Positions 1-51,500 of a stretch of DNA of 64,000 nt are shown one piece after another; the stretch's first letter is position 1; each line of letters starts with the position of its first letter. The notes below the pieces were generated by a model. That model saw only the letters and a program-made list of their open reading frames with translations. It searched no databases and had not been told where the DNA came from. The stretch is taken from positions 1-64,000 of the forward strand of contig JAZQAZ010000041.1 in assembly GCA_045545475.1 (NCBI GenBank), written 5' to 3'. Both the position numbers and the translations under genes were made by a program. Source of the DNA: Clostridia bacterium (GTDB lineage: Bacteria > Bacillota > Clostridia > CAKSNL01 > HGM11501).

Positions 1-73
1 TGATATTTTTACACATATTTATAATTTCAACTGCAAAATCTTTTGCTTTATCAAGCATTATGCTTTCTGCCAT
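1..73 (-). CDS. Probable four-helix-bundle protein (23S rRNA IVP/bAvd-like, TIGR02436-type), 5' part only; runs off the window edge
   Basis: Not in the ORF track. Manual translation from ATG at 73 gives MAESIMLDKAKDFAVEIINMCKNI, with an SD-like AGGATGTGA just upstream. The DKAKDFAVEII pattern resembles helix 1 of Firmicutes four-helix-bundle proteins. Only 24 codons are visible. Confidence 0.55.
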   Translation of the reverse strand, partial: MAESIMLDKAKDFAVEIINMCKNI

Positions 74-100
74 ATACTCACATCCTATCAATTTCTTTTA

Positions 101-308
101 GCTAAATTTTGCAACAAGTTGCAAGGCTAAATTATTACGCTTTGCTCCATAGCTAAATAACTCCTTCGGAGCAGCTAAATTAAATTCGCATTATAGCTGA
201 CCGCAGGTCAATTTAGCTACGAAGTAATTTAGCGTGCGTCAGCACATTTAGCTCGCTGCCAAGCGAATTTAGCTGAATAGATTTAACTTTGTTAAATCTA
301 TTCTACCA
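101..308. repeat. Modular hairpin array: 4x GCTAAAT followed by 4x ATTTAGC heptamers, separated mostly by short hairpins and ending in a 13-bp-arm palindrome
   Basis: GCTAAAT at 101, 126, 152, 174. ATTTAGC at 211, 227, 246, 267. Spacers include TTGCAAC-AA-GTTGCAA, CTCC-TTC-GGAG, TGACC-GCA-GGTCA, TAC-GAA-GTA, GTGC-GTCA-GCAC, TCGC-TGCCAA-GCGA and GAATAGATTTAAC-TTT-GTTAAATCTATTC. Confidence 0.9.
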
Positions 309-328
309 CACCATGTAAAAAAACACAA
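300..328 (-). promoter_or_regulatory. Putative sigma-A promoter reading into the hairpin array
   Basis: TTGTGT (328-323), 17-nt spacer, TAGAAT (305-300) preceded by TG (extended -10). Confidence 0.5.
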
Positions 329-356
329 TACAAAATAAAGAAAAAAACAGAAGGCA

Positions 357-1628
357 TCAGCCTTCTGTTCCTGTACTTTTTATATTGTTTGTATCTTCTC
401 TTTCAACCAATACGCTCTTGCTGTCTTCAACCGCCTCTTTTGTGACGATTATTCGTGATATGGAAGGCTCAGAGGGAATCTCATACATTACGTCTCCCAT
501 AATTCCTTCAATGATAGCACGAAGACCTCTTGCACCGGTTCCACGTTTTATTGCCTTCTCGGCAATTGCCAAAAGAGCATCCTTTTCAAATTCAAGCTTA
601 ACTCCGTCATAGTCGCAAAGATGTGTATACTGCTTAACAATGGCGTTTTTCGGAACGGTGAGGATATTAACCAAAGCATCCTTATCAAGATTTTCAAGAG
701 CAACCACAATGGGAAGTCTTCCTATAAATTCAGGAATAAGACCGAACTTCAGCAAATCCTGAGGCTCAACCTTGGAGAAATATTCGCCGGTATCCATATC
801 CTTTTTGCTTTCAACATCGCTTCCGAATCCAACCACGTTGCTTCCAAGTCTTTTCTTTATTATCTTTTCAAGACCGTCAAAAGCACCGGAGCAGATGAAA
901 AGAACATTGGTTGTATCAAACTGTATAAACTCCTGATGTGGGTGCTTTCTGCCACCCTGGGGAGGCACGTTTGCAACTGTTCCTTCAAGTATTTTAAGCA
1001 AAGCCTGCTGAACACCTTCTCCGCTCACATCTCTTGTAATGGAAGGGTTTTCGCTTCTTCTTGAAATTTTATCAATTTCGTCAACATATATAATGCCTCT
1101 CTGTGCTCTTTCAACGTCATAATCTGCCGCCTGAAGGAGCTTTAAGAGAATATTCTCAACGTCTTCACCCACATAGCCTGCCTCTGTCAGTGCAGTTGCA
1201 TCCGCAATAGCAAAAGGAACATCAAGAATTTTCGCAAGAGTCTGTGCCATATAGGTTTTTCCCACTCCTGTAGGGCCAAGAAAAAGAATGTTACTCTTTT
1301 GAATTTCAACCTCGCCGTCCAATTTACCTGCCACTCGCTTATAGTGATTGTAAACCGCAACAGCCAGACTTTTTTTTGCCTGTTCCTGACCTATTACATA
1401 CTCATCAAGACGCTCTTTAATTTCTCTAGGCTTTAACAACTTGAAATTCACCGATGTGCCTTTAGCAGGAGCGAATTCGAGATCATCATTTTCTTCCGAT
1501 ATAATATCATAACAAACTTCTATGCATTCGTCGCAGATATACGCCCCGGGGCCTGCGATTAGCCTGTTGGCTTCCCCCTGAAGCTTTCCGCAAAACGAAC
1601 AGCATATTTTCTTTTCAGAATCTTTCAC
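357..1628 (-). CDS. clpX: ATP-dependent Clp protease ATP-binding subunit ClpX
   Basis: N-terminal Zn finger CSFC..ICDEC, Walker [25 protein letters not shown] and PPQGGRKHP. Confidence 0.98.
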
Positions 1629-51258: not shown

Positions 51259-51324
51259 AGCTTCACTCCCCTATAGAATCAGTTAACGATTCAGATTTCT
51301 ATGTTTTTGAGATAATCCGCAGAC

Positions 51325-51407
51325 GAAGACAAGGGGACGGTTCTATTGTCTCATCGCATCACATACCGTAACAGTTTTCAAGACAGCAGAACCGTCCCTT
51401 TGTCTTC
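51325..51407. repeat. REP-like inverted repeat with 27-bp arms and a GGGACGGTTCT/AGAACCGTCCC core
   Basis: GAAGACAAGGGGACGGTTCTATTGTCT (51325-51351) and AGACAGCAGAACCGTCCCTTTGTCTTC (51381-51407); 3 differences from a perfect inverted repeat. Confidence 0.85.
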
Positions 51408-51500
51408 AGCTACGAAGTAATTTAGCGTGCATCAGCACATTTAGCTCGCCGTAGGCGAATTTAGCTGAATAGATTTAACTTTGTTAAATCTATTCTACCA
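51408..51500. repeat. Second, partial copy of the hairpin array at 215-308
   Basis: Identical to 215-308 except loop GTCA to ATCA and TCGC-TGCCAA-GCGA to TCGCC-GTA-GGCGA. Confidence 0.95.

Follow-up and report, generated by a model that had tools for sequence, protein, structure and literature searches.

A tagged hairpin array and its four-helix-bundle gene as the probable front part of a mobile gene cassette in gut Clostridia

The first nucleotides of a contig (C41) from a 2.74-Mb Clostridia bacterium genome hold a cluster of short repeats interspersed with small hairpins, set between a promoter-like stretch and the truncated start of a gene, and raise the question of what kind of element joins such an array to such a gene. 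The window referred to below is the whole stretch of 64,000 nucleotides that was analysed, which begins this contig. On its + strand, GCTAAAT starts at positions 101, 126, 152 and 174 and ATTTAGC at 211, 227, 246 and 267, with a degenerate tag, ATTATAGC, at 190; the heptamers, their two opposed blocks and the ninth tag thus lie where an earlier sequence-only reading had placed them. Genome-wide, both heptamers together occur 171 times, which gives an expectation of 0.011 per 173 bp against the eight observed, and clusters of eight exist only here and on contig C18. Block 2 (98..181, - strand) comprises four ATTTAGC tags in the sense direction and three hairpin spacers, and its mirror, block 1 (190..274, + strand), comprises four tags plus the degenerate one and four hairpin spacers. 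Most of the spacers had been described as perfect hairpins; that at 133-151 is a short stem with purine-purine mismatches, and an additional perfect 13-bp palindrome at 275..303 (hairpin 0) had been missed. Folding of window positions 85-300 gave z = -5.6 as RNA and z = -5.9 as DNA, with 0/200 shuffles as good in either case. The layout does not fit CRISPR, as already noted, since the tags are 7 nt long, form two inverted blocks and have self-complementary spacers, where a CRISPR array would show direct repeats of 23-50 nt and spacers of foreign origin.

The array is followed on the - strand by a short leader (74..100) with a purine-rich stretch at 81-86 that may serve as a ribosome-binding site, and by the 5′ end of the gene (1..73), of which the contig end leaves 24 codons, identical to the start of a full gene on C18. 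The C18 copy differs from the window at 3 positions in 310 nt (99% identical), and its gene is complete. The 122-residue product matches PF05635 (E 7.8e-29) and TIGR02436 (116 bits, cut-off 24), so that a family assignment first made from 24 residues is confirmed by a gene with an identical start, above the curated cut-off. Its closest relatives come from gut Clostridia, mostly Oscillospiraceae-type MAGs, and three further paralogs in this genome each have a two-block array of another tag. The PDB entries 2RLD (E 6e-32) and 2GSC (E 2e-26, profile) match, each with five chains, and by analogy we infer a pentameric ring for the cassette protein. The proposal of one repeat per subunit is not borne out, with 4-5 tags per block vs five chains in these solved relatives. 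Sequence and profile searches gave no match between the cassette protein and Avd itself; PF05635 is reported as homologous to Avd (PMC10053308), a protein described as a positively charged pentameric barrel (PMC6182149). Two unannotated gut contigs among phages matched the gene, plasmids matched only the cargo, and six pattern matches in viral contigs were chance occurrences inside ORFs.

A promoter had been placed at 328-300 and assigned to the element; by eye it reads TTGTGT-17-TG-n-TAGAAT (- strand). A consensus scan did not call it, and its -35 matches the consensus at 3/6 positions; the -10 box is supported by the junction analysis. Homology to C18 and other copies ends within the hexamer TAGAAT (300..305, - strand), a hybrid -10 box that forms the left junction, and the crossover would lie at or next to its TA (305-304). 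Hairpin 0 overlaps this box and, from comparison of the copies, is the first part of the cassette. Everything beyond, with the extended -10 TG at 308-307 and the weak -35 at 328-323 (306..328, - strand), is conserved in the empty sites of relatives. The -35 region and the -10 TA belong to the host, and the promoter is not part of the element. A host terminator behind clpX follows at 343..372 (- strand).

Comparison of copies argues strongly that the array and adjacent gene belong to a non-autonomous gene cassette of gut Clostridia, of which they form the front part, about the left quarter, and that this cassette is mobile is very probable. The C18 cassette measures 949 bp, beginning at the TA of the host -10 box and ending with a 24-bp motif ahead of a rebuilt -10 hexamer, and its cargo is a 107-aa gene with weak inorganic-pyrophosphatase matches. 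By comparison, the order is the TA of a host sigma-A -10 box, nAAT, hairpin 0, block 1, block 2, the four-helix-bundle gene, an exchangeable small cargo gene and a right end about 0.6-1.4 kb downstream. The right end consists of GCATCTAAA and 14 further nucleotides (a conserved 24-bp motif) and then TAnAAT, which restores a -10 box to the displaced host gene. The orientation is constant, with the host promoter reading into the cassette, and further cassettes are added in series at the junction so restored. The suggestion of a mobile module stands; its conserved right end, which defines the mobile unit, had escaped notice.

Several lines of evidence support insertion. At the window locus, the clpX terminator, the promoter and the downstream gene are all present in three of nine relatives (G010, G002 and G003), with no insert between them; the remaining six have other neighbours or are cut. 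Since the downstream gene of these empty sites sits behind the C18 copy in the present genome, the two copies probably bracket one inserted block or are strain variants. Searches recovered neither the right end of the window copy, which lies outside the assembly, nor the contig ahead of C18. Among 23 pairs of cassettes that share cargo and are 92-100% alike inside, 22 have unrelated flanks beyond both hexamers, the exception being one site present twice, and two more sites behave in the same way on one side each. A second, decayed and gene-less copy in the window (51272..51497, - strand; 94% identical over 97 nt) has the same left junction, hairpin 0, three tags and a degenerate right end at 51297-51272. 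No clean empty alleles were found for this site or that of C18; different neighbourhoods or a remnant appeared instead, with G010 carrying a shorter remnant at the former. In contigs from three gut metagenome runs, depth increases from the left hexamer onwards and ends with the right one, and the contigs include a gene-less joint of the array straight to the right end. A back-joint was seen in one contig only, which tandem copies explain equally well.

Within 85 loci of close homologs (at least 75% protein identity), the left core (TAnAAT and hairpin) was present in 53, the right motif in 35 and both in 32, and loci without the left core had the right end in 3/32 cases. All loci together gave 87 distinct right ends, 71 of them with a left core. 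These 71 two-ended units, a sample biased toward the gene because 80 loci had been fetched with it, are 154-1373 bp long; the gene is present in 31, another 32 are short units without it and 8 have other cargo, while a tag array without the gene is found in 21. TG precedes the hexamer in 59/71, and TTG stands where the -35 is expected, again in 59/71. In an even draw of 401 Clostridia genomes, 33 contained the right end (control matches, 0), and PF05635 was found in 31 of these vs 111/366 of the others, a comparison in which kin are not independent. The third base goes with the hairpin type in the left hexamer, but in the right one it differs among members of a single cargo lineage, and by hand count the two hexamers are identical in 11/31 units, with TA on both sides. 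These observations place the probable crossover at or next to the TA; one site is just as consistent with a left hexamer that derives from the host. A unit of 169 bp, without the gene, combines the same ends with a different, tag-free hairpin core and recurs in several families (L127, L128, L139, L143, L148, L167, L177, L183 and L187). A third end variant of GCATCTAAA (G000:C24:27276 and 27033, C46:24634; L055, L068, L085) lies beside REP-like palindromes and a putative DUF559-like endonuclease gene.

A sister end type has the same GCATCTAAA box, a different tail of 13-14 nt and then CCA, by which it rebuilds tRNA CCA ends. It was found in 32/401 genomes; the -10 type is present too in 16 of these, against an expectation of 2.6. 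The CCA is followed by a hairpin and in many cases by another array, so that units stack, and tRNA genes lie within 1.5 kb upstream in 9 of the 30 tRNA-type loci viewed. No four-helix-bundle genes (0/26) were present among ORFs upstream of these ends. The gene, the array or both are missing from many cassettes, which, together with the tRNA-type ends, argues that mobility belongs to the ends and that array and gene form one passenger module. Right ends of the tRNA type with very varied cargo stack behind tRNA genes at G000:C47:57836, C3:988, C42:2475 and C9:1820 and in L312-L341.

No recombinase or transposase was present among the ORFs of any unit or its vicinity in the loci viewed. The candidate movers are correspondingly tentative: an HUH/Y1-type enzyme and a serine recombinase are equally conceivable, and a tyrosine recombinase or some other enzyme is somewhat less probable still. 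Cassette ends were absent from the five tyrosine recombinase matches of this genome, from the seven large serine recombinase loci viewed (of eight matches) and from the single Y1 gene. The end motif was likewise missing from 30 serine recombinase loci elsewhere with 1.5-kb flanks, and right ends occurred in 0/30 Y1 loci; both families are common in end-positive and end-negative sets alike. A stand-alone 276-aa tyrosine recombinase was found in 18/26 end-positive vs 4/26 end-negative genomes and was rejected as the mover: inverted repeats of its own flank a promoter, and the association was put down to shared lineage. A pattern scan of metagenomes gave eight matches, of which five looked like genuine ends on inspection; a recombinase accompanied none of them.

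The 276-aa recombinase gene (G000:C20:109099-109927, L342; L346-L357) is followed by an inverted pair of 20-nt repeats around a promoter-like stretch and often precedes a TetR-like or surface-protein gene, an arrangement that resembles a promoter-inversion switch and is common in these Clostridia. A RAYT-like Y1 gene at G000:C30:129615-130121 contains GTAG-type palindromes. Similar palindromes occur in the promoter region downstream of clpX in G003 (L122), a region that seems to be an insertion hot spot.

What, then, is the array that this cassette carries? The unique spacers of 78 GCTAAAT arrays were analysed on the sense strand. Stems of at least 4 bp were formed by 90/114 and 54/109 unique spacers, vs shuffle means of 3 and 11. 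Block 1 has no GNA among 49 triloops (TNC, 31/49) and no GNNA among 56 tetraloops (TNNC, 28), and block 2 has GNA in 28/75 triloops and GNNA in 9 tetraloops, with neither TNC nor TNNC. GNYA loops exceed GNRA loops by 19:9 and 6:3. Mismatches follow the same division: A-C outnumber G-T by 11 vs 3 in block 1, while block 2 has 22 G-T vs 6 A-C and 96 G-A vs 4 C-T. Loops and mismatches thus favour folding of the antisense strand in block 1 and of the sense strand in block 2, and the placement of the GNA and GNNA loops points to folded DNA, not RNA. In this connection, GNA mini-hairpins are described as far more stable as DNA than as RNA (PMC13037366). A nearest-neighbour DNA model of the window copy favoured the antisense strand in both blocks (-14.8 vs -12.1; -10.9 vs -9.5), so that the asymmetry of block 2 was not reproduced. 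The two blocks had also been proposed to pair into a multi-branched structure; in 180 tag pairs from 45 arrays, none of the 18 deviating pairs was compensated, and such a conserved fold was dropped. On balance, we favour an array that acts as a folded-DNA landing pad for the four-helix-bundle protein.

The explanation of the whole that we hold with moderate confidence is a cassette that inserts at -10 boxes and carries the array as a passenger, a DNA landing pad for its protein. An enzyme acting in trans would cut and join at a YA dinucleotide, probably via a circle. Each DNA strand would fold its own block into mini-hairpins, leaving the 7-nt tags exposed as a tandem row that, we infer, the cognate four-helix-bundle ring binds. 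Ring binding would most likely repress or insulate the cassette's own transcription, and the ring might also coat a single-stranded transfer intermediate.

That the array acts instead as RNA, either as a structured 5′ leader or as an antisense RNA pair bound by the ring and giving translational or attenuation feedback, would leave the cassette part unchanged; we consider it unlikely. The array of the -10 type is transcribed as a leader, it stands behind the -10 junction without a second promoter in 49/81 GCTAAAT loci, and its RNA fold as a whole is good, as given above. One metatranscriptome contig spans the array, for which DNA carry-over is possible. The related motif Gut-1 is annotated as RNA (PMC2864571), and Avd is described as working with RNA (PMC6182149). 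Against these points, the loops of block 1 are optimised for the antisense strand, UNCG accounts for 1/56 tetraloops and GNYA exceeds GNRA. Furthermore, hairpin 0 begins upstream of any likely transcription start, and many tRNA-linked loci have the promoter of the gene downstream of the array; a -10-like box lies between array and gene in 10/15 such loci with other tags.

Array and gene are regularly associated, as had been predicted: a two-block tag array lies upstream of 124/209 distinct four-helix-bundle genes in the collected loci, and tag type follows protein clade. The arrays fall into eight tag classes, and the other 85 genes show simple tandem heptamers, flanks cut short or no recognisable array. 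A tree was built from 73 proteins (31 of 82 GCTAAAT rows and all 42 others), leaving out the 85 genes without a tag class. The eight tag labels require seven changes on it, the minimum, vs a shuffled mean of 38.1 (0/200). Host families are mixed on this tree, and single genomes carry several tag/protein pairs. A matching array 3′ of the gene, which had also been proposed, was found only in odd loci such as L101 and L051. In rearranged forms (L101:1750-2470, L051:830-1500, L098), the gene lies between inverted tag arrays or block 1 restarts right after it. Two-block arrays of plain, hairpin-less tandem heptamers stand before four-helix-bundle genes or within the same cassette ends in L012, L014, L258, L264 and L123.

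The match between tag and clade can come from physical linkage alone, and a less probable alternative than the RNA one takes the array as a neutral, self-homogenising palindromic repeat (REP/BIME-like) that hitch-hikes with the gene. The 21 gene-less tag arrays among 71 units are in line with this, as are the variable number and rearrangement of arrays (L101, L051, L098) and genomes in which the cognate gene was not found. Specifically, among five genomes with gene-less arrays, a close CGATAT-clade gene was clearly present in two, one with a stop; in G089 and G338 a GCTAAAT-clade gene was absent. The alternative is weakened in that at least four tag types freely exchange cargo, ends and hairpin 0 with one another, yet no clear tag/clade mismatch appeared in 73 rows. 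Moreover, the spacers vary and still keep their stems far above the shuffled level, and all eight tags of an array stay alike.

Least probable of all, array and protein would be part of a mobility machine, for instance a single-strand origin or packaging signal with a coat protein whose ring recruits a host enzyme, a view in line with one tagged block on each strand, the occurrence of GNA mini-hairpins in primase sites (PMC13037366), PF05635 in 31/33 end-positive genomes and the lack of a dedicated recombinase among the ORFs viewed, and opposed by the 19/71 -10-type units without a tag array, the tRNA-type ends without four-helix-bundle genes upstream (0/26) and the constancy of the ends while the tags change.

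The cassette resembles several known systems in part. MITEs and Correia elements are small, non-autonomous, multi-copy and intergenic, change promoters and have TA at their junctions. The cassette shares filled and empty alleles and multiple unrelated sites with MITEs; it differs in terminal inverted repeats of only about 4 bp, asymmetric ends, fixed orientation and carriage of genes. TA stands on both sides, as a possible target-site duplication, and the full hexamer is identical in 11/31 units. Integron cassettes are promoterless small genes with a conserved 3′ site that insert behind a promoter and stack in arrays. By contrast, the present right end is non-palindromic, with no attC-like hairpin; no integrase was found in or beside the units and no fixed platform was found, insertion being directed instead to tRNA ends and to a large number of host promoters. 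REP/REPIN elements with RAYT and IS200/IS605 elements (HUH Y1) have DNA hairpins by the junction, a strand-specific design and no true target duplication. The conserved non-palindromic right end and its absence from the Y1 loci set the cassette apart from these, and the lack of ends beside large serine recombinase genes (7 own-genome loci, 30 others) sets it apart from serine-integrase elements. No reverse transcriptase or TR/VR pair, as in diversity-generating retroelements, was evident in the ORF lists of the loci.

The 23S rRNA intervening sequence (PMC4990558) lies in an rRNA gene, with its ORF inside a long hairpin. The present cassette lies between the clpX terminator and a protein gene; the likeness to intervening sequences and Avd kin is the PF05635 protein, and the difference is that both repeat blocks stand upstream and do not bracket the gene. 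Closest to the window array is Gut-1 (RF01706), which Weinberg et al. (2010, PMC2864571) list among non-coding RNAs with no assigned function. It occurs in gut bacteria and likewise repeats a short tag between small hairpins that vary. Of the three paralogous loci in this genome, two have arrays that matched the Gut-1 model on both strands, with scores of 74.9, 66.3 and 50.3 bits; the window array gave no match up to E 10 (positions 1-400), and thus none at 50 bits, nor did L001 give one, while the tag-hairpin-tag architecture is shared. Gut-1 spans a single block, and its tag is of the GTGAAAT type. The window array differs in its tag, each of its blocks is half of a mirror pair, and it is tied to a gene and cassette ends.

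The openly accessible literature that we searched contained no report joining PF05635 genes to such arrays or describing ends that target -10 boxes. The locus is very probably a mobile cassette with a Gut-1-like array, the array probably being the DNA partner of its gene, and it connects the PF05635 family with the Gut-1-type motif, both of them orphans of long standing. The cassettes land in promoters without destroying them, capture host transcription for small cargo genes and replace the host -35 region by their own end, so that they could reshape expression in rumen and gut Clostridia. A bolder and clearly more doubtful reading is a platform-free cassette system in which one recombinase serves -10 boxes and tRNA CCA ends, the target being rebuilt each time, and in which the rings recognise by sequence the 7-nt tags displayed between DNA mini-hairpins, several orthogonal tag/protein pairs coexisting in one cell. 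The mover would be a new promoter- and tRNA-targeting recombinase. If this reading is true, PF05635 would gain a function, Gut-1 would be reclassified as DNA and a promoter-targeting integration tool could follow; the eight tag/protein pairs offer built-in specificity controls for a cheap and direct binding test. Elsewhere in the window, the C-terminal end of trigger factor (2290-2560) contains five Lys/Ala-rich repeats (KKPAAKKTTKKAADAEGE-like) that resemble a histone-like tail.
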